Assembly: GCA_963719945.1 (NCBI GenBank)
Contig: CAVRDX010000001.1
Location: 128,001-192,000 of the forward strand
Direction: 5' to 3'
Length of the DNA: 64,000 bases
Origin: an uncultured Thermoplasmata archaeon
GTDB lineage: Archaea > Thermoplasmatota > Thermoplasmata > UBA10834
The notes under the pieces were generated by a model that saw only the letters and a program-made list of their open reading frames with translations, did not search any database and was not told where the DNA came from. Every line of letters starts with the position of its first letter. Positions within the stretch are counted from its first letter, which is position 1. Of the stretch, positions 11,110 to 33,649 are shown one piece after another. A program made the translations under genes and the position numbers.

Positions 11110-11194
11110 GCGAGGGTAGCCAAGCCCGGTCAAAGGCGACAGACTCAAGATCTGTTCTCGCAGGGGTTCCCCGGTTCAAATCCGGGCCCTCGCA
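11110..11194 (+). tRNA. tRNA-Leu (CAA)
   Basis: Acceptor stem GCGAGGG/CCCTCGC plus discriminator A; anticodon arm ACAGA-CTCAAGA-TCTGT; long variable arm; T-loop GGTTCAAATCC; no encoded CCA. Confidence 0.97.
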
Positions 11195-11228
11195 CATTAT
11201 TATTCTAAATGCGTAAATTATATTGTGT

Positions 11229-11250
11229 CACAGTTCAAATCAGGATCATG
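11229..11250 (+). repeat. 22-bp direct repeat, copy 1 (CACAGTTCAAATCAGGATCATG)
   Basis: 21/22 identical to 11860-11881; each copy precedes an ORF of cassette 1. Confidence 0.8.
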
Positions 11251-11283
11251 TAATGGTCCCGAACTCTGCAGCAGAAGTTCTAA

Positions 11284-11832
11284 GTGATGGCGATTCAATT
11301 CCCTGTTTGGTCGGGTGGCTGCCTGCGCATTGGGCATTTGGATGGTAAGAACAGGATATACGATTCTGATGGAGAGCTGATTCTCAAGGAGAGCGAGAGG
11401 CTTCTTGGCAGATATGTCAAAGTGGAATTAGACATCAAGAAAGGGTGGCGCATGTGGATGGTGGAGAGTGTCTTCACGAGAGAAGCAGGCGCCGTTACTT
11501 GCTACATTACAGACCGGAGAATTGTGTGCATAAGGCGTCCGGATGTCCACAAGGCCGGCGCCTATCTGATGACTCCCTATGGCGCTGCGGAAGGGATCGC
11601 AGATATGTACAAGGCTCGCAAGATTCTCGAAGCAGGCGGATTTGAGTTCTGTGAGTTCATGCCGGATGAGATTCGATTCTACAAGAAGTATCCTGCGGTG
11701 ATGAGTCTCAGGATGATGGATGGTGGAAAGAAATACAGTGCAGACTTCACGATAAAGGGCAAAGCCTTGTCACCTCATTTCCGTCCCGCTCTGATGTCTT
11801 GGGTGGAGAGTAAAGGGATTTCACCAGCGTGA
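11284..11832 (+). CDS. Hypothetical protein (cassette 1), possibly PH/GRAM-like fold
   Basis: 182-aa ORF; CYITDRRIVC resembles PH/GRAM-like segments (weak). Confidence 0.65.
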   Translation: MMAIQFPVWSGGCLRIGHLDGKNRIYDSDGELILKESERLLGRYVKVELDIKKGWRMWMVESVFTREAGAVTCYITDRRIVCIRRPDVHKAGAYLMTPYGAAEGIADMYKARKILEAGGFEFCEFMPDEIRFYKKYPAVMSLRMMDGGKKYSADFTIKGKALSPHFRPALMSWVESKGISPA

Positions 11833-11859
11833 TGCTTCAATCTCCTATGGCCTTCTCTC

Positions 11860-11881
11860 CACAGTTCAAATCAGCATCATG
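11860..11881 (+). repeat. 22-bp direct repeat, copy 2 (CACAGTTCAAATCAGCATCATG)
   Basis: 21/22 identical to 11229-11250. Confidence 0.8.
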
Positions 11882-11913
11882 CGTAACCACTCGATTCATA
11901 AGGACTGAGTTCA

Positions 11914-12420
11914 ATGCGCCTGCGATGTCTGACTCGGAGGAGAATGCATGTGTCTTTCGCAGGAGGTGAGACTCTGAGTTTGCTCGCGGAGAGATTTGCT
12001 AGATGGGAAGAAAAGCAAAAGAAATCCAACAGACAGTTGAGATCTGTTCCAGGCCTTAGGAATATCTTCCTTTTCCTGTCATTTGGCTTGATTCCAGCAT
12101 TCTTGCTCTATGCGTGGTTCGATTCCAATGCAAACAATCTGCAATATACATGGTTGTCAGTTGCCGCATTCGTGTGTATGTATTCCTATGGGATGATAGC
12201 TATACTTGACCTTGGCTATCGACGCGACGCTGCTTATCTTGCGTCGGGTTTTCTCATTATTGCATTTGCCAATAAACTCATTGGAAATAATTTCGAGCAT
12301 AGCCTGATTATATGGGGGATGCTGATTGGTTGGTTTAGCGGCGTTGCTTCCATATCATGCATAATGTGGCTTAGGCTTCGAAAAGAATGGAACGAGAAGA
12401 ATCCTGAAAAGAGATGTTGA
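11914..12420 (+). CDS. Hypothetical 4-TM membrane protein (cassette 1)
   Basis: Four hydrophobic segments; true start probably downstream, after GGAGGTG at ~11962. Confidence 0.65.
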   Translation: MRLRCLTRRRMHVSFAGGETLSLLAERFARWEEKQKKSNRQLRSVPGLRNIFLFLSFGLIPAFLLYAWFDSNANNLQYTWLSVAAFVCMYSYGMIAILDLGYRRDAAYLASGFLIIAFANKLIGNNFEHSLIIWGMLIGWFSGVASISCIMWLRLRKEWNEKNPEKRC

Positions 12421-12445
12421 TTCAGCGCTCAGATTCTCTCGATTT

Positions 12446-12555
12446 TTTACCATCAAAGAATTCGGAGAATCAAGAATCGTGTTTGGCTTTTAGGATTATA
12501 GCTGGCAGTTTTAATTAGGGGTAAATTTGGGGTGATAATCCGGGCCCTCGCACAT
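12446..12555 (+). repeat. Cassette repeat R1 (arm plus tRNA 3'-end core)
   Basis: TTTACCATCAAAGAATTCGGAGAAT...GATTATAGCTGGCAGTTTTAATTAGGGGTAAATT...ATAATCCGGGCCCTCGCACAT. Confidence 0.95.
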
Positions 12556-12645
12556 ATTTATTATGTGCATATTATTCAAATATGCGGCCGGCTATTGATT
12601 CGTGATGGTCATTGAAATGCATCGTTGCTTCACAGGTACTCTATG

Positions 12646-14118
12646 TTATGAGTTCGCGGGGGTCATCAGAGGATAATCGTCCTGGACTCTCCATGCTATC
12701 AAATATGGGGTGTCGCCGATTCCGTCTTCATCTTCGTCTAAGCCCTCATAATCTGACCAGTAGTTGCCTCTGCCAATCGTCTCATTGCTGAATGATGAGG
12801 TATAGAGATATGCACTACAATCTGCAGAATCCGCGTTGTCAATGAAGTCATTGAGGAATACTTCTAGTCTGTCGGTAGCAGACCCCATGGACGCCATGAT
12901 TCCGTATCCATTACCTCGAAGAGTGTTTCCTGTGACCGTGATATTCCCCCCAAGTGCCATGATACCTGCTCCATTGTCCCGCAGAGTGTTCCCATTGATT
13001 ACGATACGCTCTCCGTCAGTCATAAGGCCAGAGGCGCAATCACAAATCGAATTCTCCATTATTGTCACGTTCGCAGAATCATCCACATTCACCCCATCGA
13101 TGCAGGATGTGATCTGGTTATGTTTGATGGCAACGTTCGTGCATCCGTGTATAAAAACGCGGGCGTTTTCTATCATGCTGGATTCAATCGTGACACGGGT
13201 CGACTCCCTAGCTATGATGCCACCGGTGAACACAGCATTGGAGAGGGCACATTCAACGATTTCACAGTCACGAACCTTCATCAAATAGATGCATGTTGAG
13301 ACACTAGATATCTCCAATCCTGATATGCTCGCATTATTGCAGTTGAGCAGAATCAATTGCCCCACTTGTTCGCTGTAGAGTCTGAATTGAGAATGATTCT
13401 CGAAGAAGTATAGGGGCCTTCCATTTACGGTATTGTCTAGGGGTATATTCAATCCAGAAGAATTAGGCCCTATAGGTATCTCATATTCGTCAAATTCGAG
13501 GCCGCTGCCTTCAAATCTATTCCCAGAAATCGTGACATTCGCAAAATCGGATCCAATGATTCTTATCCCGATCTTCATTGATATCGATGGCAAGTACTCT
13601 ACGCTCCCGTTATCGAAGCTGTTCTCCTCGATGAGTACCGAATCAATGTTGCTGATCGACATGCCCGTGAAGCATGATGTCACCCTGTTTCTTATGATGG
13701 AGCACCTGATGCTATCATGCACGCCAATCCCCTCATAATGACCGATTATCATCGAATTCTCTACCCTTCCATTAGATACATTCTTGAGCAGTATCCCCGC
13801 AATGTTGAGCCCCTCTAATGAAACGTTTCTCACAACGAAGTGCGCCAAAGTTTCCTTTATTAAAATACCTGCTGCTTCAAGGCCGTATTCAATTCCGGAG
13901 GAGTCGATTCTCCACCCTTCAATGATGTACGGGTCTTTCTCAGTTCCCGATCCAGTTGTTACTCCGTTCTCTTCTGTGAATTCTTCATCGCTCGTAATGA
14001 TGATTGGGTCATGCTTGCGCTCGGAGTCAAAATAGCCCGAATAGAGAAGGACCGAGAAAACTGAAACTGAGGAAACTGCGATGACTAGAATCAGGGCGAC
14101 AAGCTTCCTCCGCTCCAT
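12646..14118 (-). CDS. Right-handed beta-helix (NosD/CASH-type) surface protein (cassette 2)
   Basis: N-terminal TM; GSGTEKDPYIIEGW; repeated I..N...N..GI units; GNYWSDY...DGIGDTPY...DDYPL C-terminus. Confidence 0.88.
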   Translation of the reverse strand: MERRKLVALILVIAVSSVSVFSVLLYSGYFDSERKHDPIIITSDEEFTEENGVTTGSGTEKDPYIIEGWRIDSSGIEYGLEAAGILIKETLAHFVVRNVSLEGLNIAGILLKNVSNGRVENSMIIGHYEGIGVHDSIRCSIIRNRVTSCFTGMSISNIDSVLIEENSFDNGSVEYLPSISMKIGIRIIGSDFANVTISGNRFEGSGLEFDEYEIPIGPNSSGLNIPLDNTVNGRPLYFFENHSQFRLYSEQVGQLILLNCNNASISGLEISSVSTCIYLMKVRDCEIVECALSNAVFTGGIIARESTRVTIESSMIENARVFIHGCTNVAIKHNQITSCIDGVNVDDSANVTIMENSICDCASGLMTDGERIVINGNTLRDNGAGIMALGGNITVTGNTLRGNGYGIMASMGSATDRLEVFLNDFIDNADSADCSAYLYTSSFSNETIGRGNYWSDYEGLDEDEDGIGDTPYLIAWRVQDDYPLMTPANS

Positions 14119-14212
14119 CCTGGGTCCACCATGAGCCTTAAGACAGCACTGTGATATCAATATTATCTCTATCTCAGGGGAATCTTGTCAGCTAGTCACC
14201 CCCGTGTAATTC

Positions 14213-14324
14213 TTTACCATCAACGAATTCAGGAAACTCATGATTCGCGTTTAGCTTTGAAGTTTATAGCTGGCAGTATTAATTAGGGGTAAATTCCAGG
14301 CTGAAATCCGGGCCCTCGCACATT
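14213..14324 (+). repeat. Cassette repeat R2
   Basis: 112 bp; core AAATCCGGGCCCTCGCACATTATTATTC identical to the tRNA 3' end and its downstream bases. Confidence 0.95.
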
Positions 14325-14348
14325 ATTATTCATAATGATGGATGATTG

Positions 14349-15209
14349 TCAAGTTGTTCGATGGCTCGCTGCACCGTGTGCTCGCTTGGGTGATTTGATC
14401 CGATGGGGTCGCACCTTTCTGTCGACCACTATCTGATTGTTCTTTTCGAGATAGTCTAGGCACTCTCTGATAAATGCAGGGGTTTCCCTCAATTCGGTTG
14501 AGAGTCCATCGACCGAGTTCATCCCCTTGTCAATTAGTGTGAGCAACCGCTGGGCACCCATCTTCAATTCCGCTCTTGTCTTCAGTGCTCGTTTCCAGGG
14601 GACTTTCACACCGTATCTCCTTTCCATCTCATCGAGCTTCGTGAGAAGGAACGCCTCCCAGATGCTGCTCTTTCTCAGCCCTTCGGGATCAGTCTGATTA
14701 TCGCACTCCTCTAGGATGATATCGCGGCTCAATCCTTTTCTGAACAACGCGATCATGTCGTCAAGGTCTCTTGATCTCTCAGTTACGCTCTTGAGCAGGA
14801 ATATATCTTCTCGCGAACAAATATACAGAACAAGTTCTCCCCATTCGTCAACCCGCTCTGCTCTTCGAATCATCCCTTCGGAGAGCCTTAGTTTGTTACA
14901 GATCCTTTCGGCGAAGATGTCGGCTCGCACCCCTCCTGAAGCGGACAATATTGTCGCGTCTACAAGTGCGTGACATTCCTGTGGATGCCTGGTATTGACA
15001 TCGAATCCTAGCGATTCGAAAGCTCTCTTGAGTTCCTGCGCTTCAAGCGATGATCGCACTATCAGATCCAAGTCCTTGGTAGCATCCTTCTCGCCTCTGA
15101 GCGCCATTGCTCCACCTCCCACCAAGTAGACTTGGATTCTCATGCTGCAGATATTCCCGACCTTCTCCATTATTGAAAGGACCTCTGATTTGCTGATTTG
15201 GGCCGGCAT
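14349..15209 (-). CDS. Nucleotidyltransferase (DUF6036/AbiEii-like) with C-terminal wHTH (cassette 3)
   Basis: YLVGGGAM...TKDLDL Pol-beta NTase motif; LLKS...R.RDLDD. Confidence 0.8.
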   Translation of the reverse strand: MPAQISKSEVLSIMEKVGNICSMRIQVYLVGGGAMALRGEKDATKDLDLIVRSSLEAQELKRAFESLGFDVNTRHPQECHALVDATILSASGGVRADIFAERICNKLRLSEGMIRRAERVDEWGELVLYICSREDIFLLKSVTERSRDLDDMIALFRKGLSRDIILEECDNQTDPEGLRKSSIWEAFLLTKLDEMERRYGVKVPWKRALKTRAELKMGAQRLLTLIDKGMNSVDGLSTELRETPAFIRECLDYLEKNNQIVVDRKVRPHRIKSPKRAHGAASHRTT

Positions 15210-15212
15210 CGT

Positions 15213-16133
15213 TCACTTCACCCCATATTGTATTCGTAATTCCTGCATATCCGACCTGCTAGGGAATAGCAGGTTCTCGACGTCTTCACCATCGAGGTAT
15301 TTTATCATCAGTTCGGATAGTTCCCCCACCCCCATCGCATCTCCTTGTCTACGTAGGTATCCTGACCTGTAGCCACTCTTGAACAGGAAGAGCAAGCTGT
15401 ATGCGATGCCTCTTGAGCTGCTTGGATCTATCAGGATGTTGTGGAGGGCGATATCCTCTGGTTTCAGACTCGGTCGCCAGTATGCATAGTGGTAATACTT
15501 CGTATCCGAAATGAACTGAAGTCCGCGTTGCGACATTGCTGTTACCCCAGTGCTGCGAATTCCAGATGTGTCTTTCAACTCTCGGGACGCGAATATAAAC
15601 TGAAGCCCTTCGCACCAGAGTATCCTCCCTGCCGAGGTGATGTCATCGAGGACCGCGGCGCACGCTCCTCTGGAGAAGTCCTGTAGAAATCGTGTTAGTA
15701 TCTTGTCTGATTGAGGAATCGAAATCACATCGCCATCCTGGACAACTGCTGCAAATCCTTTCAATGCCCAGACGATTCTGCGAACAGATTCTGGAGCAAG
15801 TCGCGTTTCAGTTGCGATTCTTCCGAGCGTCTTTTGATTACTTGAGGCCGAGAGCATGACGAGGAGCCTGGAACCAATCAGTGGTTCGATTGCACGAGAA
15901 TTTCCTTCTAGATATGTTGCCAGTGCTTTTGAGTGACCATGCGAGCTTATGAAGATTATATTGATCTTCCCTTCTCTCCGACTTGTCACAAGCTTCTTTG
16001 ACGATAGAGACTGGATTATTCTGTAGATTGAGATATTCGATAGGCCCGTATCTTCTATTAATGCAGCTGCTGATACATGACCATCGCATACTGACTTGAA
16101 TACTCGGAGTTCATTCTTGTTTAGAATATACAT
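15213..16133 (-). CDS. Winged-HTH protein, putative antitoxin or regulator of the adjacent NTase (cassette 3)
   Basis: Two HTH-like segments (TGLSNISIYRIIQSL; IATETRLAPESVRR); 3-bp gap to the NTase gene. Confidence 0.7.
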   Translation of the reverse strand: MYILNKNELRVFKSVCDGHVSAAALIEDTGLSNISIYRIIQSLSSKKLVTSRREGKINIIFISSHGHSKALATYLEGNSRAIEPLIGSRLLVMLSASSNQKTLGRIATETRLAPESVRRIVWALKGFAAVVQDGDVISIPQSDKILTRFLQDFSRGACAAVLDDITSAGRILWCEGLQFIFASRELKDTSGIRSTGVTAMSQRGLQFISDTKYYHYAYWRPSLKPEDIALHNILIDPSSSRGIAYSLLFLFKSGYRSGYLRRQGDAMGVGELSELMIKYLDGEDVENLLFPSRSDMQELRIQYGVK

Positions 16134-16330
16134 TGTGTGCAATAATTGATTGTTCATATATATAGAATTTATCAATATTGACACAAATGTTGCGGTTCAA
16201 TGAATATCAAAGCGTCGTGATATCCCTTCATCTTCTGCCGCTAGAGTACCAGGGTAGCAATCATCAAGGTCCATTCCATTTTGAACTCAGCTTGACAATA
16301 TGACTCTGGAATAATCTGATATCCTATTTC

Positions 16331-16442
16331 TTTGCCATCAAAAAATTCGGAGAAATCAAGGATCGCATTTGGCTTCGAAGATTCTAGCTGGCAGTTTTAA
16401 TTAGGGGTAAATTCCGGGTCATAATCCGGGCCCTCGCACATT
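16331..16442 (+). repeat. Cassette repeat R3
   Basis: 112 bp; TTTGCCATCAAAAAATTCGGAG...ATAATCCGGGCCCTCGCACATT. Confidence 0.95.
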
Positions 16443-16697
16443 TTAATTTCAAAGATGGGATTTATGTGCAAATCAACACCCTGCACTTCGGTATTCTCAC
16501 AAGCCCATTGACATGCCACCTTGTTTGAAGGATGTTGACCATCTATCTCTCTGAGGTTGCGTACCTGATCAGAGGTATTGGACAGTGGAGCGAGCAATCT
16601 CGGGCGGTATAGTCCATATGATGTGCCTGCGGCGTTTGACATGTCGCGGAAAATCTTCTATAGCTGCAAGAGCCATTGGGTTGAGGGAGGTTCGTCT

Positions 16698-17333
16698 GTG
16701 AATGCTGAACGCGCTTCGCCAGTTGAGGGACCGGAACGCAATTGGTCGACTCGGAAGAAGATATATGTGATTGTGATTGTCACAGCAGTCATAGCGTCCT
16801 TCTCAATGTGGTCTTTCTACGAATTCTACCTGGAGGAGCAAAGAGTTGCAGGGTTCGACTCTTATGTGAAGATCAGCTACACCGTTTCTATCGCATGCAA
16901 TTCCTCCGATCAATACAGGGTTCTCTGCCCGTTGCCTGTCGATTCAGAGGGGTGTGTTTGGCCCCTAACTCAGGGATATCTATATGTCACTGGAAATTCG
17001 ACCACGAGTATTGCGATGACAGAGTATGGTGAAGCCCTTGAAATCACAGGCAGTGGCGTCACAATAATCACCATGAATATTCGCTCGACGCTCACTGATC
17101 CTTTTGAGAACCTGACTCGCTACTGGCACCTCAGCTTGATGGAATCCAACACGGAATTGGGGTTTCGTGCGAATCTGTATTCTGACCACGAAGATGTGTT
17201 GTTTGGGCTGGTGTTCGACTATGACTTTGTCTACGGCAACTGTGGAGCGAACTTCATCGGTGATGAGTGCATAGGCAGTCTGAACAATGGGTGGAACACA
17301 TTATCTGTTGATCATAGTGGGGGAGTCGCCTGA
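16698..17333 (+). CDS. Hypothetical membrane-anchored protein (cassette 4)
   Basis: GGAGGT SD with GTG start; one TM helix then a beta-rich domain. Confidence 0.7.
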   Translation: MNAERASPVEGPERNWSTRKKIYVIVIVTAVIASFSMWSFYEFYLEEQRVAGFDSYVKISYTVSIACNSSDQYRVLCPLPVDSEGCVWPLTQGYLYVTGNSTTSIAMTEYGEALEITGSGVTIITMNIRSTLTDPFENLTRYWHLSLMESNTELGFRANLYSDHEDVLFGLVFDYDFVYGNCGANFIGDECIGSLNNGWNTLSVDHSGGVA

Positions 17334-17420
17334 TCATTGAATTCTAGGTCTATGTCCATGAACTCCAAGGGAGTTCCGAAGAAGTAATATCTCTCCGCCT
17401 ATGTTCTCGCCTGTCGATTT

Positions 17421-17532
17421 TCTACCATCAAAGAATTCGGAGAATTCACGGATCGCATTCGGTTTTGAAGATTATAGCTGGCAGTTTTAATTAGGGGTAA
17501 ATTCTGGGCTATAATCCGGGCCCTCGCACATT
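17421..17532 (+). repeat. Cassette repeat R4
   Basis: 112 bp; nearly identical to R7. Confidence 0.95.
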
Positions 17533-17753
17533 ATTATTTATGAACCGGGATTCAAAGGTGGCCCAAAACTGCGTATTCGTTACGATTATTTCCAGGACCA
17601 GCTAATCTGGCGTGGTCGATTAGGTGACAATGGCATGATAAATATGCTTACAACAGTCTTCTGATGGTCTGAAATATTTATTTAGTATGATATGTTACGA
17701 TGCCTGCCCAGCAGTGATGGGGGGTTTTGCTTCACTGCTAAAGGAGAGATTCT

Positions 17754-18953
17754 ATGGAGCCTGGAAGTACAGGATTTATGCTTGTGGCAACGAGCCTTGT
17801 CATGCTGATGACGCCTGGCTTGGCTTTTTTCTATGGTGGACTTGTTGGACGAAAGAATGTGCTCACAATAATGATGCAGAGCTTTGTATCGATGGGGGTT
17901 ACGACAATCATCTGGGTCACAGTCGGATTCTCGCTGTGTTTCAGTGGTGATGTAGGCGGGATTATCGGGAATCTCGATAATGCGTTTCTAATGGGGCTTG
18001 ACTTGAACACTCCGTTCACTGCAGATATCCCGGTATTCGTCTTTATCGCATACCAAATGATGTTTGCTGTCATTACGCCTGCTCTGATCACTGGCGCGTT
18101 CGCTAACAGGGTCAAATTCCCAGCTTATCTCATATTCCTGGTGGCATGGTTGCTACTGGTCTACTTCCCAATGGCCCACATGATATGGGGCGGTGGTATC
18201 CTTGCTCAATGGGGCGTTCTCGATTTCGCAGGTGGTATCGCAGTCCACGCCATCGCGGGTATGGCCGCTCTCGCATCCGTTTTCTTTGTCGGCGCGAGAA
18301 AGGACAAGCCTTCTGGTCCTCATAGCATCCCATTGGTTGCGCTCGGCACGGGGCTTCTGTGGTTCGGCTGGTATGGATTCAATGCTGGTAGCGAGCTGAG
18401 AGTGGATGAGGTAACGGTCACTGCATTCCTGAACACCGATATCGCAGCGTCCTTCGCAGCGATATCATGGCTTATCTTGGCTTGGACTCTTGAGAAGAAG
18501 CCGAAATTCCTTGGGCTGCTCACGGGCGCGGTCGCAGGGCTGGCGACGATAACTCCTGCTGCGGGGTTCGTGACTCCGCAGGCTGCGATGGTCATCGGTC
18601 TTTTGGCGGGTGTGATATGCTACTTTGCTGTGGCGCTGAAGAACAAGAGGCATTGGGATGATGCTCTCGATGTATGGGGCGTTCACGGTGTCGGTGGCAT
18701 TGTCGGAGTGGTCTGTCTAGGATTATTCGCAACGCTGGAAGTCAACAGCGCGGGTGCGAACGGTCTGTTCTATGGCGACGCTCGCTTCTTCGCGGTCGAG
18801 ATAGTCGCGGTTGTCATCGCTTCCGTGTATGCCTTCGTATTCACATACATAATGCTGCACGTGATTAACAAGATCACGCCTGTCAGAGTGAGCGATGCGG
18901 ATGAACTGACTGGTCTGGACCAGACGGAGCACGGTGAGGAAGCGTACGTGTGA
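17754..18953 (+). CDS. amt: Ammonium transporter (cassette 5)
   Basis: LMTPGLAFFYGG, DFAGGIAVH, LWFGWYGFNAGS and DDALDVWGVHG motifs. Confidence 0.97.
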   Translation: MEPGSTGFMLVATSLVMLMTPGLAFFYGGLVGRKNVLTIMMQSFVSMGVTTIIWVTVGFSLCFSGDVGGIIGNLDNAFLMGLDLNTPFTADIPVFVFIAYQMMFAVITPALITGAFANRVKFPAYLIFLVAWLLLVYFPMAHMIWGGGILAQWGVLDFAGGIAVHAIAGMAALASVFFVGARKDKPSGPHSIPLVALGTGLLWFGWYGFNAGSELRVDEVTVTAFLNTDIAASFAAISWLILAWTLEKKPKFLGLLTGAVAGLATITPAAGFVTPQAAMVIGLLAGVICYFAVALKNKRHWDDALDVWGVHGVGGIVGVVCLGLFATLEVNSAGANGLFYGDARFFAVEIVAVVIASVYAFVFTYIMLHVINKITPVRVSDADELTGLDQTEHGEEAYV

Positions 18954-19105
18954 AACCGTGCGGAACCAGCGTAGTGGGCGAGGCCAAATCTGGTTCAACA
19001 AACCTTTTTCGCTGTTTCAATTGCTCCTCGAGTTTGAATGGGGATCACTAGTTCTATTTTTGATGGCGGTCCAGGAGAAAGCATGAGTTACTACATTGCA
19101 TCGTG

Positions 19106-19765: not shown

Positions 19766-19769
19766 GTTA

Positions 19770-20537: not shown

Positions 20538-20540
20538 GTG

Positions 20541-23564: not shown

Positions 23565-23755
23565 TGTATCACCTGCGGTCTTCTTGCTTTCTCTGTCTCT
23601 TCAATGATCAGCAGGCGACCATTGGCGCTTGAATGTTCAGAGCCTAGATGTCATTGTCAAACTGTGTCAAGCCATCGCATATATAGAAGTATAGTCTCTA
23701 TATAGAAAGCAATAATATCACCTCGTGCCAATGTGTGTATATAGAGTCCAATTAA

Positions 23756-24775: not shown

Positions 24776-24920
24776 TCATCAGCAACTTTCCTGTCTTCGC
24801 TTCACATTTTGATCCCTATGTAACGCCAGCTCTCATCTCTGCAGATTCGACCCTGATGACTGAGGCTGTTTCTAATGGCAGTTCTCTACAGCGCAATGAA
24901 TCGGCTTTATCGTTCATTTC

Positions 24921-25032
24921 TTTACAATCAAAGAAATCGATGAATTCATGATTCGCAATTAGCTTTGAAGATTATAGCTGGCAGTTTTAATTGGGGGTAA
25001 ATTCCGGGCTATAATCCGGGCCCTCGCACATT
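24921..25032 (+). repeat. Cassette repeat R5
   Basis: 112 bp with intact core. Confidence 0.95.
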
Positions 25033-25231
25033 TTAATATTTGCGAAAAGATTTACGTTCATGCAGATGCCGGATCGAGAGCAAGCCCGTATCGGCATCAT
25101 TCGGTGCCCCCGAAGTGATTATATTCAGCAATTATATCTCATCACTGCTGAGCGTCGGAGAGGCCTTTCAACATTGGGATTGGAATCATGGATGAGTCGC
25201 TCTTATCGTTCTAAGTAGGCCAACTGGTGAA

Positions 25232-25786
25232 ATGATGGATTTCGTCACGGTGATTCTAATTGCGATTGGGCTATCCATGGATGCTTTTGCAGTTTCAATT
25301 GCCAAAGGAATATCTGTAAATAAGAACAGAAGAAGATCCGCAATCCTATTGGCTTCTCTTTTTGGAGGGTTTCAAGCGCTGATGCCCGTAATCGGTTGGT
25401 TTGCAGGTCTGGGCCTAAGGGACATAATCATGGGAGTCGACCATTGGATTGCATTTGGGCTACTCGGGCTCATTGGCGCAAAGATGATCTACGACTCAAC
25501 GAACGGTGAAGATGGTAAGGAGGAAGATGTTACAATATTCGCGGCACTCGTCCTCGCAGTTGCGACCAGCATCGATGCTTTGATGGTTGGTCTCAGTTTC
25601 GCATTCTTGGAGACACCTATCTTGATCCCCGTCCTGATCATTGGAGCAGTAACCTTTGTGCTATCTTATCTGGGATTCATATTCGGCTCAAGGATGGGAA
25701 GCATCTTCGGCAAGAAGGTAAAGATTCTTGGCGGCCTTATCCTCATATTAATCGGGATACGGATCTTGATAGAGCACTTACTATAG
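25232..25786 (+). CDS. mntP: Manganese efflux pump MntP (cassette 6)
   Basis: GLSMDAFAVS, FQALMP, DHWIAF and ATSIDAL motifs. Confidence 0.95.
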   Translation: MMDFVTVILIAIGLSMDAFAVSIAKGISVNKNRRRSAILLASLFGGFQALMPVIGWFAGLGLRDIIMGVDHWIAFGLLGLIGAKMIYDSTNGEDGKEEDVTIFAALVLAVATSIDALMVGLSFAFLETPILIPVLIIGAVTFVLSYLGFIFGSRMGSIFGKKVKILGGLILILIGIRILIEHLL

Positions 25787-25889
25787 ACAACCGGGAGTTC
25801 AAGGGCTACATCCATTGTCATCGATTGATTGATATTGATCGTGGGGGTCGAATCCCATCAACATTGCCCCTTGATGACTGGTTCATTTC

Positions 25890-26001
25890 TTTACCATCAA
25901 AGAATTCGGAGAATTCAAGAACCACATTTGGCATTGAAGATTATAGCTGACAGTTTTAATTGGGGGTAAATTCCGGGCTATAATCCGGGCCCTCGCACAT
26001 T
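25890..26001 (+). repeat. Cassette repeat R6
   Basis: 112 bp with intact core. Confidence 0.95.
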
Positions 26002-26054
26002 TTAATAATCTGGCGTGAATTAATGTGTGGGTGTTGTCTGCTCCGAATGCTTTA

Positions 26055-27437
26055 CTACCTCTTTCCTCCAATCGATTCTTGCGTCGAGAGGAGGAGTCTC
26101 CACAGAGGAAAAAGGGTGATAGCGACATCGCCCAACTCCATGGTCCCCTCTCTGTCTTTCGTGACAAGGTAGGCTTTGTTGCAGCCATGCACTTCACAGA
26201 ACCTCGCAAGTCCCTTCGCGTCAGATTTGTAGATGCTGGTCTGGTACTTGAGTTCGATTGGAACAGGACCGTGTCTTGATGGCAGCACTATGTCAACCTC
26301 GTTCCCCTGCGGGTCTCTCCAGAAGAAGACCTGTGACGTCCTTGAGAGGTGGTTGTACGCGGCGGTTTCCGCCAACCTTCCGAGTTCCTGACTTCCAGTC
26401 ATATCATCCAGTCCAAGAAGGGCACTGATCAATCCAGTGTCCGTGAGATATGCCCGTTTCGAGGATCGCGCCTGTTTGACCATGCTCTTGGTGTAGTTGT
26501 AGCAGGTCGAGAAGAGCATCGCCCGCTCCAGGATAGAAAGGTACTTCGAGGCCGTTTGTGCCTTCATTCCTATGTCCGGTGCGATGTTGGCGATCTCGAA
26601 CATTTGAGAACTCATGGAGGCGAGTATCTTCAGGAGGTGCATCATGCTCGCAGGGTTCGCGATGCTCTCAGTCTCGGGAAGGTCGTGATACACCACTCTG
26701 TCCAAGACGGATTGCCGGATGTATCTGTGTACCTTTGTGATGGGTTGCATGCCGACCGTCTCCGGATATCCCCCTCTGACCAGGTAGTTGGTCAATGCGT
26801 TCGTGACCTCGTTCTGAATGAGCATGAATGACTCCGGGACCGGAGCGCCCGACCCTATGGGTGGGATTCGTGGCACCTCAATCCCTTTGAACGCCAGATA
26901 TTCTCGGAAAGACAAAGTCGGAATGGTGATATCGAACGCCCTTCCCGCAAGGCTCTCGCCCATGCCCTTCCTCAACCCGAGCGACGACGATCCTGATGCG
27001 AATATCTTCACGTTCGGTTTCGTCTCATAGATGCGCTTGAGGATGGTAGGCCATTCATTAATGAACTGTATCTCGTCGAGGAACAGGAATACCGGGTTCT
27101 TCTTCGAAGGCTTGGTTGGAACTACGTTCTCAAGGAAGTATGATACGACATCCTCGAGGATTGTGTGTTCCCTCGATAGGACTTCGTCAAAGGAGAAGTA
27201 CATAGTGTTCTTGGAATTGACGCCCCTGTCGAGCAAATCCTGCATCGTCTTGGTGATTGCCGTGGTCTTCCCCGACCTCCTCGGCCCCGTGACAAGGACA
27301 ATCTGTCGGTCATCGGCGAAGCTTGTCAACTCCTCAATCGATTCCCTCTGGATGATTTCTTCAACGTGCTCAGCGAGGGATTCACCTCTCCACTGTGGAT
27401 TCGAGATCACTATCTGTCTCACGAGCCTTTCGTTCAC
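26055..27437 (-). CDS. AAA_14 ATPase with DUF4143/PD-(D/E)xK C-terminus (cassette 7)
   Basis: GPRRSGKT, FLDEIQ, SGSS, GGYP and EVDIV...PIELK motifs. Start uncertain (27437 or 27476). Confidence 0.9.
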   Translation of the reverse strand: MNERLVRQIVISNPQWRGESLAEHVEEIIQRESIEELTSFADDRQIVLVTGPRRSGKTTAITKTMQDLLDRGVNSKNTMYFSFDEVLSREHTILEDVVSYFLENVVPTKPSKKNPVFLFLDEIQFINEWPTILKRIYETKPNVKIFASGSSSLGLRKGMGESLAGRAFDITIPTLSFREYLAFKGIEVPRIPPIGSGAPVPESFMLIQNEVTNALTNYLVRGGYPETVGMQPITKVHRYIRQSVLDRVVYHDLPETESIANPASMMHLLKILASMSSQMFEIANIAPDIGMKAQTASKYLSILERAMLFSTCYNYTKSMVKQARSSKRAYLTDTGLISALLGLDDMTGSQELGRLAETAAYNHLSRTSQVFFWRDPQGNEVDIVLPSRHGPVPIELKYQTSIYKSDAKGLARFCEVHGCNKAYLVTKDREGTMELGDVAITLFPLWRLLLSTQESIGGKR

Positions 27438-27628
27438 GGTGAATCGATATAATTGTGAGTTTATAATGATTTCCAATATATCTAAATGTGTTATTGGGCT
27501 TCAACTGCTCCACAGACAGCACCTGCAACGCTACCAGCTCGACCCTTAGTTCGGCAGCCGATCTCGCTGGCGATGCCCTCGAGATCGCCGAGACAGCGGT
27601 CGACACTGTCGAGAAGCTCGCCTCGTTT

Positions 27629-27740
27629 TTTACCATCAAATAATTCGGAGAATTCACGGATCGCATTCGGTTTTGAAGATTATAGCTGGCAGTTTTAATT
27701 AGGGGTAAATTCCGGGCTATAATCCGGGCCCTCGCACATT
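27629..27740 (+). repeat. Cassette repeat R7
   Basis: 112 bp with intact core. Confidence 0.95.
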
Positions 27741-27764
27741 ATTATTCATAATGATGGATGATTG

Positions 27765-28625
27765 TCAAGTTGTTCGATGGCTCGCTGCACCGTGTGCTCG
27801 CTTGGGTGATTTGATCCGATGGGGTCGCACCTTTCTGTCGACCACTATCTGATTGTTCTTTTCGAGATAGTCTAGGCACTCTCTGATAAATGCAGGGGTT
27901 TCCCTCAATTCGGTTGAGAGTCCATCGACCGAGTTCATCCCCTTGTCAATTAGTGTGAGCAACCGCTGGGCACCCATCTTCAATTCCGCTCTTGTCTTCA
28001 GTGCTCGTTTCCAGGGGACTTTCACACCGTATCTCCTTTCCATCTCATCGAGCTTCGTGAGAAGGAACGCCTCCCAGATGCTGCTCTTTCTCAGCCCTTC
28101 GGGATCAGTCTGATTATCGCACTCCTCTAGGATGATATCGCGGCTCAATCCTTTTCTGAACAACGCGATCATGTCGTCAAGGTCTCTTGATCTCTCAGTT
28201 ACGCTCTTGAGCAGGAATATATCTTCTCGCGAACAAATATACAGAACAAGTTCTCCCCATTCGTCAACCCGCTCTGCTCTTCGAATCATCCCTTCGGAGA
28301 GCCTTAGTTTGTTACAGATCCTTTCGGCGAAGATGTCGGCTCGCACCCCTCCTGAAGCGGACAATATTGTCGCGTCTACAAGTGCGTGACATTCCTGTGG
28401 ATGCCTGGTATTGACATCGAATCCTAGCGATTCGAAAGCTCTCTTGAGTTCCTGCGCTTCAAGCGATGATCGCACTATCAGATCCAAGTCCTTGGTAGCA
28501 TCCTTCTCGCCTCTGAGAGCCATTGCTCCACCTCCCACCAAGTAGACTTGGATTCTCATGCTACAGATATTCCCGACCTTCTCCATTATTGAAAGGACCT
28601 CTGATTTGCTGATTTGGGCCGGCAT
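27765..28625 (-). CDS. Nucleotidyltransferase (DUF6036/AbiEii-like), second copy (cassette 8)
   Basis: Protein identical to 14349-15209. Confidence 0.8.
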   Translation of the reverse strand: MPAQISKSEVLSIMEKVGNICSMRIQVYLVGGGAMALRGEKDATKDLDLIVRSSLEAQELKRAFESLGFDVNTRHPQECHALVDATILSASGGVRADIFAERICNKLRLSEGMIRRAERVDEWGELVLYICSREDIFLLKSVTERSRDLDDMIALFRKGLSRDIILEECDNQTDPEGLRKSSIWEAFLLTKLDEMERRYGVKVPWKRALKTRAELKMGAQRLLTLIDKGMNSVDGLSTELRETPAFIRECLDYLEKNNQIVVDRKVRPHRIKSPKRAHGAASHRTT

Positions 28626-28628
28626 CGT

Positions 28629-29549
28629 TCACTTCACCCCATATTGTATTCGTAATTCCTGCATATCCGACCTGCTAGGGAATAGCAGGTTCTCGACGTC
28701 TTCACCATCGAGGTATTTTATCATCAGTTCGGATAGTTCCCCCACCCCCATCGCATCTCCTTGTCTACGTAGGTATCCTGACCTGTAGCCACTCTTGAAC
28801 AGGAAGAGCAAGCTGTATGCGATGCCTCTTGAGCTGCTTGGATCTATCAGGATGTTGTGGAGGGCGATATCCTCTGGTTTCAGACTCGGTCGCCAGTATG
28901 CATAGTGGTAATACTTCGTATCCGAAATGAACTGAAGTCCGCGTTGCGACATTGCTGTTACCCCAGTGCTGCGAATTCCAGATGTGTCTTTCAACTCTCT
29001 GGACGCGAATATAAACTGAAGCCCTTCGCACCAGAGTATCCTCCCTGCCGAGGTGATGTCATCGAGGACCGCGGCGCACGCTCCTCTGGAGAAGTCCTGT
29101 AGAAATCGTGTTAGTATCTTGTCTGATTGAGGAATCGAAATCACATCGCCATCCTGGGCAACTGCTGCAAATCCTTTCAATGCCCAGACGATTCTGCGAA
29201 CAGATTCTGGAGCAAGTCGCGTTTCAGTTGCGATTCTTCCGAGCGTCTTTTGATTACTGGAGGCCGAGAGCATGACGAGGAGCCTGGAACCAATCAGTGG
29301 TTCGATTGCACGAGAATTTCCTTCTAGATATGTTGCCAGTGCTTTTGAGTGACCATGCGAGTTTATGAAGATTATATTGATCTTCCCATCTCTCCGACTT
29401 GTCACAAGCTTCTTTGACGATAGAGACTGGATTATTCTGTAGATTGAGATATTCGATAGGCCCGTATCTTCTATTAATGCAGCTGCTGATACATGACCAT
29501 CGCATACTGACTTGAATACTCGGAGTTCATTCTTGTTTAGAATATACAT
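28629..29549 (-). CDS. Winged-HTH protein, second copy (cassette 8)
   Basis: Three amino-acid differences from 15213-16133 (E/D, S/N, V/A). Confidence 0.7.
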   Translation of the reverse strand: MYILNKNELRVFKSVCDGHVSAAALIEDTGLSNISIYRIIQSLSSKKLVTSRRDGKINIIFINSHGHSKALATYLEGNSRAIEPLIGSRLLVMLSASSNQKTLGRIATETRLAPESVRRIVWALKGFAAVAQDGDVISIPQSDKILTRFLQDFSRGACAAVLDDITSAGRILWCEGLQFIFASRELKDTSGIRSTGVTAMSQRGLQFISDTKYYHYAYWRPSLKPEDIALHNILIDPSSSRGIAYSLLFLFKSGYRSGYLRRQGDAMGVGELSELMIKYLDGEDVENLLFPSRSDMQELRIQYGVK

Positions 29550-29746
29550 TGTGTGCAATAATTGATTGTTCATATATATAGAATTTATCAATATTGACAC
29601 AAATGTTGCGGTTCAATGAATATCAAAGCGTCGTGATATCCCTTCATCTTCTGCCGCTAGAGTACCAGGGTAGCAATCATCAAGGTCCATTCCATTTTGA
29701 ACTCAGCTTGACAATATGACCCTGGAATAATCTGATATCCTATTTC

Positions 29747-29858
29747 TTTGCCATCAAAAAATTCGGAGAAATCAAGGATCGCATTTGGCTTCGAAGATTC
29801 TAGCTGGCAGTTTTAATTAGGGGTAAATTCCGGGTCATAATCCGGGCCCTCACACATT
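29747..29858 (+). repeat. Cassette repeat R8 (one core substitution)
   Basis: Arm identical to R3; core reads CCCTCACACATT. Confidence 0.93.
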
Positions 29859-29996
29859 TCAATTCTTGATTCCAAATATCCATTGTGGCACCGTCTATGC
29901 CATCATCTTCTATCCTCCGTTCAAGGGTGCTTTCTCCTACCCTTACATATTGCATGCATTAGAAAACTATATGCATATGTAAGGGTATGAGATGTC

Positions 29997-30893
29997 ATGG
30001 TCGTCATTAGGAAGAAGACGGTCGATGGTCGGGAGTACTTTTATCTCCAGCACACTATCAGAACTCCCTCGGGCGTTCAAACCCGTGAGAAGTATCTTGG
30101 AGCGAAATTGCCTCACGATGTCGAGGCTTCAAAGAGGGACTTCCTTACAGAGATTTACAGAGAGCGATGGTATCCACTTCTGGATCAGGTTCGTTCGAAC
30201 TACCAGAAGGAGAAGCGTGCACTACCACCTAGCACCCTCCAGAAGCGTGATCGCCAATTCTCAATCAAGTTCACATATGATACGAATCGCATCGAAGGTT
30301 CGAGACTCACTTATCGTGAAACGGCTGATTTGCTCGAGAGAGGACTGAGTCCAAGCCAGAAACCGATTGAGGACATCAAGGAAGCCGAGGCCCACGACAG
30401 AGTCTTCCGGGAAGCGCTGCGATACAAGAAAGACCTGTCACTGCAGACGATCTTGATGTGGCACAAGAAGCTGTTCGAGGAGACGAAGCCAGATATAGCA
30501 GGGAGAGTCAGGACTTACCAGGTGGCAATCTCTGGGAGCCGATTCATGCCTCCTAGCCCCGTCGAAATCCAACCATTGCTCAGAGAATTCTTCCGATGGT
30601 ATAATCGGAACAAACCTTCCATGCACCCAGCCGAGTTGGCTGCTGGAGTTCATCTGAGATTCGTGACAATACATCCGTTTGCCGATGGAAACGGCAGGAT
30701 GAGCCGTCTCCTAATGAACTTCGTATTGCATCGAAACGGATATCCTCCTCTGAATATTCCGTATGAGGGTCGTCGGGGCTACTACAATGCGCTTGAGCGG
30801 TCCCAGGTGAAGGAGAGCGACAGCACCTTCATTCAGTGGTTCTTCAAGAGGTATCTCAAGGAATACTCAACATACACCATGACCACGAAGTGA
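29997..30893 (+). CDS. Fic-family protein (cassette 9)
   Basis: HPFADGNGRMSR catalytic motif; TNRIEGS inhibitory motif. Confidence 0.93.
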   Translation: MVVIRKKTVDGREYFYLQHTIRTPSGVQTREKYLGAKLPHDVEASKRDFLTEIYRERWYPLLDQVRSNYQKEKRALPPSTLQKRDRQFSIKFTYDTNRIEGSRLTYRETADLLERGLSPSQKPIEDIKEAEAHDRVFREALRYKKDLSLQTILMWHKKLFEETKPDIAGRVRTYQVAISGSRFMPPSPVEIQPLLREFFRWYNRNKPSMHPAELAAGVHLRFVTIHPFADGNGRMSRLLMNFVLHRNGYPPLNIPYEGRRGYYNALERSQVKESDSTFIQWFFKRYLKEYSTYTMTTK

Positions 30894-30910
30894 TTTCTTC
30901 AGGACCGTTT

Positions 30911-30997
30911 CTTACCATCAAAAGAATTCAAGAATCACATTTAGCTTTGAAGAATATAGTTGGCAGTTTCAATTAGGGGTAAATTCCAGGCCAATCC
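30911..30997 (+). repeat. Degenerate cassette repeat R9 (internal deletion, core mostly lost)
   Basis: CTTACCATCAAAAGAATTCAAGAATCACATTTAGCTTTGAAGAATATAGTTGGCAGTTTCAATTAGGGGTAAATTCCAGGCCAATCC. Confidence 0.88.
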
Positions 30998-31074
30998 CTG
31001 GAACGTCAAGGGCCTTCAATTCGTCTCAGTGTGAGATGTGAAGTCATTCTAGATGGCGATGCTCTTCGGTCTGT

Positions 31075-31971
31075 CTATCTTCGTCCCGCGGTTTCGTGGT
31101 ACAGCCGGATGGCTCGTCTGCTGGTATGCCAGTCCCCTGATATCTTCAGTGCGGGGAGTTCCCCCTGTCCCGCGCGTAGACGCAGATACTTCGCGGAGTG
31201 TCCCGACTTTCCATCCAACTGCTTCAGAGGTTTCAGCTCGTCTTCTGCTGTGCCCAGTTGATTCAGCAGATCGAGAATCGAACGACTCATGAGCTCCTTT
31301 ACCAAGTTCACAAGGTGTGACAAGTCACCGGAGTGACCCTGATCCATGCAGTCAAGATACCTCTCCCTTTCTGGCGGGAGAATATGTACAGGTGGCCAGT
31401 TGTGTTTGAGGAAGTGTTGGTTCAGGAGCAGTCTGCCGACTCTGCCGTTCCCGTCGCTGAATGGATGTATCGATTCGAAAGTGTAATGGAACCATGCCCC
31501 GAGTGTGAACACATCCTCTCCTTTGATGTCCCTGCCTTCGTAGTCCTTCAGCATCCTCCCCATCTCGTCAACGACCTTCTCCATTCTCGGAGGTATGTGC
31601 CTTGAGCCTGTGATACGGACATTCACGCGTCTCCACATTCCCGCATCCCCTTTCACCCCTCTGAACACGTTCTCATGCAACTCGAGAGTCGTTTCGAGTG
31701 TGATGGGTTGTGCTCTTAGCTGAGGGATTTCATGGAAGACCTTCTCATGTTGCAGAGTCTCTAGAACATCTCTGATTGGCCTGTTCCCGACGCTGCGCTG
31801 CTCGATGAGCAATACCTCGACATCGTGCCAGGTGAGCGTGTTCCCTTCAATGGCATTGGTTCCCCAGGTGTTCAGAGCGCTCGTCCGCTTCCAGACCTCT
31901 TCGGGAAGGCTGTCCAGGGAAGTCCTGGTGAGGAGGCAATCGCGGAGCGCAGCAAGTATGCTTTCACGCAT
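31075..31971 (-). CDS. Fic-family protein with C-terminal HTH (cassette 10)
   Basis: TNAIEGN and HPFSDGNGRVGR motifs; excisionase-type HTH-like tail YLRLRAGQGELPALKISGDW. Confidence 0.92.
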   Translation of the reverse strand: MRESILAALRDCLLTRTSLDSLPEEVWKRTSALNTWGTNAIEGNTLTWHDVEVLLIEQRSVGNRPIRDVLETLQHEKVFHEIPQLRAQPITLETTLELHENVFRGVKGDAGMWRRVNVRITGSRHIPPRMEKVVDEMGRMLKDYEGRDIKGEDVFTLGAWFHYTFESIHPFSDGNGRVGRLLLNQHFLKHNWPPVHILPPERERYLDCMDQGHSGDLSHLVNLVKELMSRSILDLLNQLGTAEDELKPLKQLDGKSGHSAKYLRLRAGQGELPALKISGDWHTSRRAIRLYHETAGRR

Positions 31972-32171
31972 GTATTGTTTATGAAGGCATATATGATATA
32001 TATACTTATATGCCAAACACTGGTATTTAGAGAATTAAGCATATGTATCGTGCTCATGTCACTGGCGCATGCGAGCATTGAGATCAATCTGAGATTCACT
32101 TGGACGACCGTGAATTGGATCCGTTTCAGGAACGAAACTCAAGGGGAGTCTATGCAGTCGAAAATCAATTA

Positions 32172-32261
32172 TCTAACGGCAAAGAATTCCACATTGAATT
32201 TTGAAGCTTCCACCATTGAACACCAGCAAATCTCAGGTCAATATTCGGATCCTCGCACATT
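32172..32261 (+). repeat. Highly degenerate cassette repeat R10
   Basis: Co-linear remnants AAAGAATTC, CACATT, TTTGAAG, ending ATATTCGGATCCTCGCACATT. Confidence 0.65.
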
Positions 32262-32378
32262 TTATGTCACGAATGAAGATGTCTGGCTGTCGGATGGATT
32301 CGACCTTGATAGGTCAGCGAGAACCTTTTCACTTCCAGAGCTACTTAAACCCTTGAGATTATTCTCCGGTGATATCAG

Positions 32379-32837: not shown

Positions 32838-32947
32838 GAGCGGGTTCCGGCTATGATTCTAGCTGTCTTCGATATGTCACACGGAGTGAGGTCTCCACAA
32901 CCGGTCCAATTATCTAGCTGCATTTCTATGAGCAGCTGATACTGTAT

Positions 32948-33574: not shown

Positions 33575-33649
33575 ATATTGACGGCGGATTGAATTCCTCA
33601 GATCCGATATATCCTTTGCCATCCATATTACGCCATAATTCAAATGATG

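Follow-up and report, generated by a model that had tools for sequence, protein, structure and literature searches.

A tandem array of putative integrase-free cassettes at the tRNA-Leu(CAA) gene of an uncultured Thermoplasmata archaeon

Little is understood of how accessory genes are acquired and exchanged in uncultured archaea, in which few mobile elements can be recognised. In Streptococcus, the cis-mobilizable elements (CIMEs) of the ICESt1/ICESt3 family of ICEs (integrative and conjugative elements) are bounded by attachment (att) sites, lack integration and transfer genes, accrete in tandem and can be moved by the integrase of a related element (PMC5704250). The tycheposons of Prochlorococcus carry an integrase, often together with replication modules, and their remnants include fragmented integrases (10.1101/2020.12.28.424599). 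The archaeal integrases of the pNOB8 type (class II), which consist of a SAM-like and a catalytic domain, integrate at the 3′ ends of tRNA genes and the integrase gene stays intact (PMC8371274). For SNJ2, small accessory proteins that are co-transcribed with the integrase are required for integration (PMC5861418). Here we describe an array of blocks located behind the tRNA-Leu(CAA) gene in a 64,000-nt stretch of DNA (the window; positions 128,001 to 192,000 of contig CAVRDX010000001.1) from an uncultured Thermoplasmata archaeon (assembly GCA_963719945.1, here G000; 1.78 Mb, 4 contigs, 87% complete). We propose that this locus is a tandem array of about eleven non-autonomous integrative cassettes, which occupy the attB site of tRNA-Leu(CAA) and are moved in trans by a Xer-like integrase. 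The probability of this explanation is estimated to be roughly two in three.

The blocks of the window are bounded by sites of the attL/attR type and contain neither integration nor transfer genes, as do CIMEs. However, CIMEs are few decayed remnants of ICEs or of integrative and mobilizable elements in bacteria. The arrays described here contain up to eleven units, comprise at least 88 cassette types with a median length of 2 kb and uniform arm boundaries, are free of integrase remnants, and reside in an archaeal host with tRNA-Leu as their target. With tycheposons the locus shares variable islands anchored on a tRNA gene, a tyrosine recombinase, successive integrations that push older elements inward, and repeats of partial tRNA sequence. 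The cargo is also alike and includes genes for nitrogen, phosphorus and metal uptake (here amt, pstSCAB-phoU and mntP) and defence genes. Unlike tycheposons, the cassettes of the window carry neither a tyrosine recombinase of their own nor a replication module. Nearly all units of the present family are integrase-free and possess an arm that is long and conserved, and a putative ribbon-helix-helix (RHH)/winged-helix partner accompanies the Xer-like recombinase; the two integrase families are set side by side here by their descriptions.

The pNOB8 and SNJ2 systems are single autonomous viruses or plasmids, and arrays of integrase-less cassettes with arms do not appear in their description. Furthermore, for ORF201, the partner protein of the present system, no similarity to a named family could be detected. 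In SSV-type ("suicidal") elements attP lies within the integrase gene, and the borders carry pieces of that gene; such fragments were ruled out for the arms described here, since neither a coding signal nor a match to hidden Markov models (HMMs) was detected in six frames; the integrase of the relatives lies intact beside the tRNA gene. Small modules bounded by dif-like Xer sites and moved by the host recombinases XerC/D are known as integrative mobile elements exploiting Xer (IMEX) and as the pdif modules of Acinetobacter plasmids. The cassettes resemble these as small modules exchanged without a recombinase of their own, but the core is formed in this case by a tRNA end, and there is a dedicated Xer-like paralogue.

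In function the array is most like an integron, and the original prediction, made from the letters of the window, described it as integron-like. In both cases small cassettes are stored in an array, a Xer-related tyrosine recombinase lies outside the cassette, new cassettes stand near the anchor while old ones decay distally, and cassettes can be promoter-poor or promoter-bearing. The likeness does not extend to the defining features of integrons, none of which was found among those tested: there is no IntI next to the array, no folded single-stranded attC, and the open reading frames (ORFs), mostly single and co-oriented in integron cassettes, lie in both orientations (107 co-oriented with the array versus 86 opposite). 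Instead, the att site is of the double-strand type with a tRNA core and arms, a tRNA gene serves as the anchor in place of attI/intI, and the recombinase is absent from most arrays. Mechanistically the array belongs to the tRNA-targeting tyrosine-integrase elements, with CIME accretion and tycheposons as its closest analogues. No description of these arrays was found in the literature on tycheposons, archaeal integrative elements, Thermoplasmata islands and archaeal integrons. What the present analysis adds is a candidate for the integrase module, a site with two arms, and before-and-after cassette pairs that occur in nature.

Layout of the array and the unit of exchange

The tRNA-Leu(CAA) gene is intact and is followed by eight full repeats in the same orientation, which start at positions 12442, 14210, 16328, 17418, 24918, 25887, 27626 and 29744. 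In each full repeat an arm of about 92 nt leads into 20 nt that match the 3′ end of the tRNA exactly. The mutual identity of the repeats is 73–100% over more than 110 nt. The core AATCCGGGCCCTCGCACA, of about 20 nt, is identical to the 3′ end of tRNA-Leu(CAA), and the 19-mer AATCCGGGCCCTCGCACAT is present in nine copies on the plus strand versus none expected (100 shuffles). The eight repeats had been recognised from the sequence alone, and repeat search, alignment and ARAGORN bear them out. Both of the decayed repeats predicted further downstream were also found; they are joined by a third decayed arm at ~33,610–33,700, and all three distal repeats of the array are decayed. The end of the island had been placed at 32,261. 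Synteny with the congener G005 restarts at ~33,712, and the island therefore reaches from 11,197 to ~33,700. It contains about eleven blocks of 969–7500 bp and has a G+C content of 43–55%, compared to 53–57% in the left flank. The repeat is confined to this one array in the G000 assembly. In agreement with the Islander-type definition of tRNA islands (PMC4383910), one border holds an intact tRNA gene, and its 3′ end recurs as a displaced direct copy at the far border; an integrase inside the island, which also belongs to the definition, is missing from all 11 blocks of the window (Pfam, HMMs). The features of the island, including the cassettes K1 to K11, are as follows.

11110-11195, plus strand: tRNA-Leu(CAA) gene, intact; sole tRNA of the window (ARAGORN; Rfam tRNA, 56.8 bits)
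11179-11197, plus strand: recombination core at the tRNA 3′ end, attB / attL side (core matches)
11197-12554, plus strand: K1, 1358 bp; two ORFs without known family (11284-11832, plus; 11914-12420, plus; no Pfam/NCBIfam match); arm and core at 12442-12554
12555-14322, plus strand: K2, 1768 bp; NosD/beta-helix surface-type protein (12646-14160, minus; PF05048, 1.4e-26); arm and core at 14210-14322
14323-16440, plus strand: K3, 2118 bp; DUF6036 nucleotidyltransferase-like protein (14349-15209, minus) and helix-turn-helix (HTH)/HVO_2833_C protein (15213-16184, minus) (Pfam); arm and core at 16328-16440
16441-17530, plus strand: K4, 1090 bp; one ORF without known family (16578-17333, plus; no family match); arm and core at 17418-17530
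17531-25030, plus strand: K5, 7500 bp; ammonium transporter amt (17754-18953, plus), phoU-pstB-pstA-pstC-pstS (19106-23564, minus) and a regulator with PhoU/AbrB-MazE domains (23756-24775, plus) (Pfam); arm and core at 24918-25030
25031-25999, plus strand: K6, 969 bp; MntP manganese efflux pump (25232-25786, plus; PF02659, 5.4e-49); arm and core at 25887-25999
26000-27738, plus strand: K7, 1739 bp; AAA_14/DUF4143 ATPase (26055-27476, minus; Pfam); arm and core at 27626-27738
27739-29856, plus strand: K8, 2118 bp; second copy of K3 (98.75% identity); arm and core at 29744-29856, core with one change (CTCACACA)
29857-31010, plus strand: K9, ~1.15 kb; Fic-domain protein (29997-30893, plus; PF02661, 2.9e-23)
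30909-30997, plus strand: decayed repeat of K9, arm only, core lost (arm match 5.2e-19)
31011-32259, plus strand: K10, ~1.25 kb; second Fic-domain protein (31075-32016, minus; PF02661, 7.8e-20)
32193-32259, plus strand: degenerate type-B arm of K10 with mutated core (alignment)
32260-33700, plus strand: K11, ~1.4 kb; GNAT acetyltransferase (32948-33574, plus; Pfam); distal island end
~33,610-33,700, plus strand: strongly decayed arm behind the GNAT gene, aligned to the arm after the same GNAT cassette in the genome G010

The unit of exchange is evident from a duplication inside the window. A second copy of block 14323-16440 lies at 27739-29856, and the two align over 2240 nt at 98.75% identity. 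At the left junction of these copies, K3 and K8, the upstream arms are dissimilar as far as the last bases ahead of the core, and the sequences are identical after it. At the right junction arm and core are identical, and divergence begins a few bases past the core. The copied unit therefore consists of the sequence right of the core (P′), the cargo, the arm and the core, with the exchange occurring inside the core.

The same boundaries were found beyond the window. A metagenome pattern scan for the repeat yielded 94 contigs, and an iterated nhmmer profile gave 273 matches in 98 loci. These loci contain 123 complete cassettes of 534–12,103 bp (median ~2 kb), which fall into 88 sequence clusters. 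All matches on genome contigs belong to metagenome-assembled genomes (MAGs) of uncultured Thermoplasmata/Thermoplasmatota, and of 36 genomes from the family of G000, about 23 carry arms (counted from two genome searches). At least nine cassette families occur in differing contexts, and their homology stops at the core on both sides. At the left end the upstream arm is unrelated and P′ is 93–100% identical; at the right end the arm is identical and the following P′ differs. By this comparison, the arm moves with the cassette to its left and P′ with the cassette to its right. Both ends of the 88 cassette types stop at the same arm positions.

The content and order of the cassettes are not fixed among relatives. 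The same cassettes recur beside different neighbours (for example clusters c2, c4, c5 and c15), and the order K3-K4-K5 of the window corresponds to K3-K5′ in the congener G006, from which K4 is absent. Fic cassettes and K7 are also found in other genera, with other neighbours. The metagenome contigs L124 and L136 have flanks of 100% (1.5 kb) and 99.9% (6.6 kb) identity and differ by exactly one 2.2-kb cassette with its own, different arm. This cassette was gained or lost recently. The serial insertion at the tRNA proposed in the original prediction is uncertain in its strict form, because single-cassette differences are also found between internal cassettes. The repeats occur in arrays only, with one array in the present genome and with tRNA-anchored arrays in most relatives examined.

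The att site was found to be larger than predicted. The arm of about 92 bp and the tRNA 3′ end are confirmed as its parts, but conservation also runs for ~35 nt right of the core. The consensus of this P′ segment, derived from 148 distinct copies, is TTTTAATT-N9-GGATTAATGTTCAAAC; it is weaker in the window. P′ holds TATA-like boxes (TTTTAATT and ATTTATG/ATTAATG). The arms are of type A, as in the window, of a shorter type B, or of a type with three TACCGGTA copies. All arm types share the first motif TTTACC-ATC/GGT-AAAGAA, an A/T-rich block and the core-adjacent motif GGTAAAT/GGTAGAT, and the arms open with a T-rich run. An attC-like or RNA structure of the repeat was ruled out. The single-strand folds of the repeats are unremarkable (z-scores –0.5 to –2.1), and the 9-bp inverted repeat GATTATAGC/GCTATAATC, which is peculiar to type-A arms, shows no covariation in 120 copies (5.27 pairs observed versus 5.25 shuffled). 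The RNAalifold consensus contains 3 pairs only (–1.8 kcal/mol), and Rfam returned nothing except the tRNA. A general promoter role of the repeat into each cassette is unsupported by the orientation statistics: the first ORF is co-oriented in 50 of the 88 cassette types. A single ORF is present in 41 of these 88 types, and others hold up to 11.

A candidate integrase and its partner in relatives

The window array contains no recombinase, replication, conjugation or capsid gene that could be recognised with Pfam, and purpose-built recombinase HMMs likewise agree with the prediction on this point. The HMMs of the integrase and of ORF201 described below gave a best E value above 1 against the six-frame translation of the window array. 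Over the 0.92 Mb of array loci, the same HMMs matched only at three known integrase loci, and recombinase families are absent from the 25 most frequent families in 140 cassette proteins. No integrase remnants were found in the blocks. An ortholog of the integrase or of ORF201 is also missing from the G000 assembly, where the best tblastn match is XerA with 29% identity. G000 has a XerA-like gene (G000:C1:430395, 139 bits) and one distant recombinase elsewhere. The blocks are, as had been supposed, discrete cargo with one att arm and without an integrase of their own, either locally or in the 87%-complete assembly. The arm-core pattern had 0 matches in the viral contigs of IMG/VR.

The recombinase had been predicted to act in trans, and a plausible tyrosine recombinase is indeed found at the same tRNA in relatives. 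PF00589 genes lie ~1 kb past the tRNA-Leu core in G018, G006 and G005. These genes were detected in a family-wide PF00589 search; L179, L180 and L181-183 came to light through look-ups of ORF201 homologues, and G015:C194 through a genome search. In total, the module of ORF201 and integrase directly follows tRNA-Leu(CAA) at eight loci (G006, G018, G005, G015, L179, L180 and L181-183). Each module starts no more than ~60 nt past the tRNA end, and the chromosomal neighbours in front are those seen in the window. They consist of two genes, with ORF201 (first called as 198–215 aa) overlapping the gene for a 324–325-aa integrase. Between G018 and G006 the integrase shows 74% identity; that of G005 is truncated at residue ~223 and lies in a 2.1-kb first block. 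The integrase is sporadic, being present in 5 of 46 genomes, and is solely tRNA-adjacent where present.

The integrase possesses a PF00589 catalytic domain and a SAM-like N-terminal domain. Its best NCBIfam match is the archaeal XerA (162–170 bits, cut-off 220), and it scores 54–64 bits on the integron-integrase model TIGR02249 (cut-off 265). From the two domains and the XerA match below the cut-off, it is classified as a Xer-like integrase of the pNOB8 class in the sense of PMC8371274. ORF201 has no Pfam or PHROG match, and NCBIfam gave only a sub-threshold match to an RHH antitoxin. In its product, an RHH-like N-terminus is followed by a long coiled coil and by a C-terminal domain that is winged-helix-like and ends in a basic tail. 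AlphaFold gave a model with a pLDDT of 72.6, and the weak Foldseek matches (E ≥0.07) are nearly all to winged-helix proteins. These features weakly suggest that ORF201 is a DNA-binding protein.

In integrase-bearing elements of the G006 lineage, the sequence right of the core contains TTTGATGGTAAAG, an inverted copy of the type-A arm motif. In G018, the palindrome GTTACCGGTAAC is found at this place and matches the TACCGGTA arms of that genome. Judged from these motifs, the co-variation of the arm and of the sequence right of the core with the integrase lineage is the main link between protein and arm. In integrase-bearing elements, a stretch homologous to P′ is located ~30 nt upstream of the start codon of ORF201.

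Defence genes, and no plasmid or virus backbone that could be recognised, were found in the first blocks with an integrase. In G006 and G018, metabolic genes, IS21 and defence genes were found in these blocks, and no capsid, replication or conjugation gene was recognised. The first block of G018:C1 (L043, 3134-15038) encodes two TIR-domain proteins and a Dpd-like 7-deazaguanine cluster with a TGT-like protein, DUF5591, a 1414-aa protein, a HerA-type helicase and QueC. L179 contains a set of the cyclic-oligonucleotide-based anti-phage signalling system (SMODS, Cap17-like), and other integrase-bearing blocks contain SNF2/PLD, HD, AIPR and methyltransferase genes.

Homologous modules were also observed behind a different tRNA-like gene in L077 (G025:C36, ~720-910) and L078 (G015:C5, ~750-935), with 59–62% identity in the integrase and 42–44% in ORF201. 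This tRNA-like gene (GCTGAGG...CCTCAGCGCC) probably bears an intron and escaped detection by ARAGORN. Lineages of the module family that target other tRNAs thus exist. On the viral contig L178 (IMGVR_UViG_3300009838_001253, 1-1900), a fragment of a major head protein (phrog_1005, 1.4e-16) precedes an ORF201-like gene, an integrase of 48% identity and a ParE toxin, with no arm. From this gene content, a head-tailed archaeal virus may be the source of the integration module.

G006 is the one congener with an intact integrase. Its contig G006:C2 (L051; also L123) of 9,877 bp consists of exactly three cassettes (AAA_14, the DUF6036 pair and pst), and its end continues into its start. The counterpart in an independent JGI assembly has 9,863 bp. 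In the assembly graph the contig forms a loop, which may represent either a circle or an amplification in tandem.

Proposed mechanism and competing explanations

In the proposed mechanism, a cassette comprises a P′ right arm of ~35 nt with promoter-like TATA-type boxes, a cargo of 1–7 genes, a P left arm of ~92 nt with repeated putative protein-binding motifs of the TACCATCA/TACCGGTA type, and the 20-nt core. Strand exchange would take place inside the core, so that cassettes would be excised, inserted, duplicated and reordered as core-to-core units, possibly with circles as intermediates. The most likely enzyme would be the Xer-like tyrosine integrase of ~325 aa, presumably co-transcribed with its putative DNA-binding partner of 201 aa. 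This pair would be borne by rare autonomous members of the family, which are tRNA-adjacent and carry defence genes. As G000 lacks the pair, its array would represent stored cassettes that are immobile for now, with the older cassettes decaying at the distal end. A helper may integrate at the genuine tRNA site, act on neighbouring cores and be lost by excision ("hit and run"). Such helper visits are favoured because all eight modules occupy the first position and no internal remnants are found.

A broader claim can be attached to this mechanism. The arrays may constitute a dedicated cassette-exchange system of soil and sediment Thermoplasmata, a functional counterpart of the integron that is built differently. 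Such a system would be anchored at a tRNA 3′ end and would draw on a pool of at least 88 integrase-free cassette types with a two-armed, promoter-bearing att site; the Xer-derived integrase and its RHH/winged-helix partner would visit on defence islands, reshuffle the array and leave. Taken as one joint claim this is tentative, with slightly less than an even chance of being right.

Several findings weigh against the proposed array of cassettes moved in trans. The integrase family is absent from G000 and from 578 kb of metagenome array loci, so that its activity in trans is something we infer. With every module in first position and none internal, either transient residence or fast loss of the integrase is needed. 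The core is nearly invariant, and the crossover can therefore be placed only to within ~20 nt. The integrase operon has a promoter region homologous to the P′ of cassettes that lack an integrase, which would also be predicted if the cassettes were derived by deletion from integrase-bearing elements. In the genus g4 (G020 and G036), the arrays lie 170–350 kb from tRNA-Leu(CAA); rearrangement, other anchors or misassembly of the MAGs could account for this displacement. The self-closing contig G006:C2 is equally explicable as a tandem duplication.

According to the nearest competing explanation, full integrase elements entered at the tRNA and lost their integrase in place, as in the CIME route, leaving the cassettes as fossils. 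The truncated integrase in the first block of G005 represents such a step, the homology of P′ to the region upstream of ORF201 and the decay of the distal repeats in the window are in line with it, and the formation of CIMEs by decay and accretion is established in streptococci (PMC5704250). This origin is nevertheless unlikely, as no remnant of the integrase or of ORF201 was found in the window array or, beyond the three known loci, in the 0.92 Mb of arrays. The uniform boundaries of 88 cassette types, their small size, the exact core-to-core duplication, the single-cassette differences within flanks of 99.9–100% identity and the presence of the same cassettes between different neighbours also argue against it. 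The cassettes could alternatively be real units of exchange that are handled by another catalyst, either the host XerA in a manner similar to IMEX and pdif modules, another chromosomal recombinase, or homologous recombination across the ~146-nt repeats. Arrays are far more common than the integrase (~23 of 36 versus 5 of 46 genomes), a XerA-type gene is present in every genome, G000 included, and archaeal XerA can integrate DNA in vitro on its own and shows weak binding to unrelated att stem-loops (PMC8371274). The identity of the repeats would likewise permit homologous exchange. However, the arm differences reach the loop beside the core and the P′ differences begin within a few bases after it, which places the crossovers within ~20 nt and not across the arms. 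As the arm and P′ motifs also change with the integrase lineage, we regard another catalyst as quite unlikely.

That the repeats serve mainly as expression or RNA elements (promoter, terminator or small RNA), in an array formed by duplication without site-specific recombination, is highly improbable. The TATA-like boxes of P′, its position upstream of the ORF201 start and the T-rich start of the arm, which could terminate upstream genes, speak for such a role; the lack of Rfam matches other than tRNA, of a stable consensus fold and of covariation, together with a near-random gene orientation, speaks against it, and the identity with the tRNA end and the linkage to an integrase would be left unexplained. 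A promoter role of P′ is compatible with mobile cassettes. The least probable explanation, to which hardly any weight is given, is a true integron with IntI and attC. Small cassettes parted by a repeated site would be expected of it, and integrons of some archaeal MAGs have been reported (10.1101/2022.02.06.479319). Yet no intI is present in the window or in the assembly, the integrase of the relatives stays far below the cut-off of the integron-integrase model, the repeats form no conserved hairpin and carry a tRNA 3′ end, and the genes lie both ways. The explanation as non-autonomous cassettes moved in trans by a Xer-like integrase is preferred.

Cassette cargo and further observations

Several cassettes of the window have counterparts elsewhere. 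A K1-type ORF is found at 95.6% identity on the metagenome contig L138, and the counterpart of K3 in G006:C2 is 97% identical. K5 is present in G005 at 94.8%, behind different cassettes, and in G006 as a 6.0-kb version without amt. Homologues of K7 stand beside other neighbours in G019 and on the metagenome contig L122, and Fic cassettes homologous to K9 were found in G006:C9, G010 and G036. The cargo (ammonium and phosphate uptake, manganese efflux, surface and Fic proteins, and anti-virus systems on the integrase-bearing members) corresponds to traits that are expected to differ between co-existing strains, a role that parallels the one of tycheposons in marine cyanobacteria. The locus offers a testable route to gene exchange in such archaea, with a defined att site (arm, core and P′), a candidate integrase and partner, and before-and-after pairs. 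An archaeal integrase of compact size whose 150-bp site is known could also become a genetic tool for archaea.

Some minor observations concern the cassettes and arrays. The DUF6036 and HTH/HVO_2833_C genes (14349-16184 and 27765-29600) resemble a pair of the toxin-antitoxin or defence type. At 8836-10031 of L052 (G006:C9), off the contig of the tRNA-Leu array and ~2.3 kb from tRNA-Ser(CGA), lies a solitary Fic cassette with 94% identity to K9. It is flanked by a stray tRNA-Leu 3′ fragment that includes the true T-loop and by an arm whose core is mutated. The arrays of the genus g4 are of type B (L050/L080/L081 of G020:C1; L054/L083 of G036:C1), and single arms are scattered elsewhere.

The motif GGAAAAGCCCATAGGGGAGGAAAGGCGA is island-specific, intergenic and mostly co-oriented with the array. 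It was observed in loci of the relatives, outside the window (for example L088, L094, L082 and L117), with 84 copies in 0.92 Mb of array loci versus 2 in the whole G000 genome. The copies are located after the stop codons of genes for membrane-anchored proteins, before start codons, just before some arms, and 36–64 nt past some cores.

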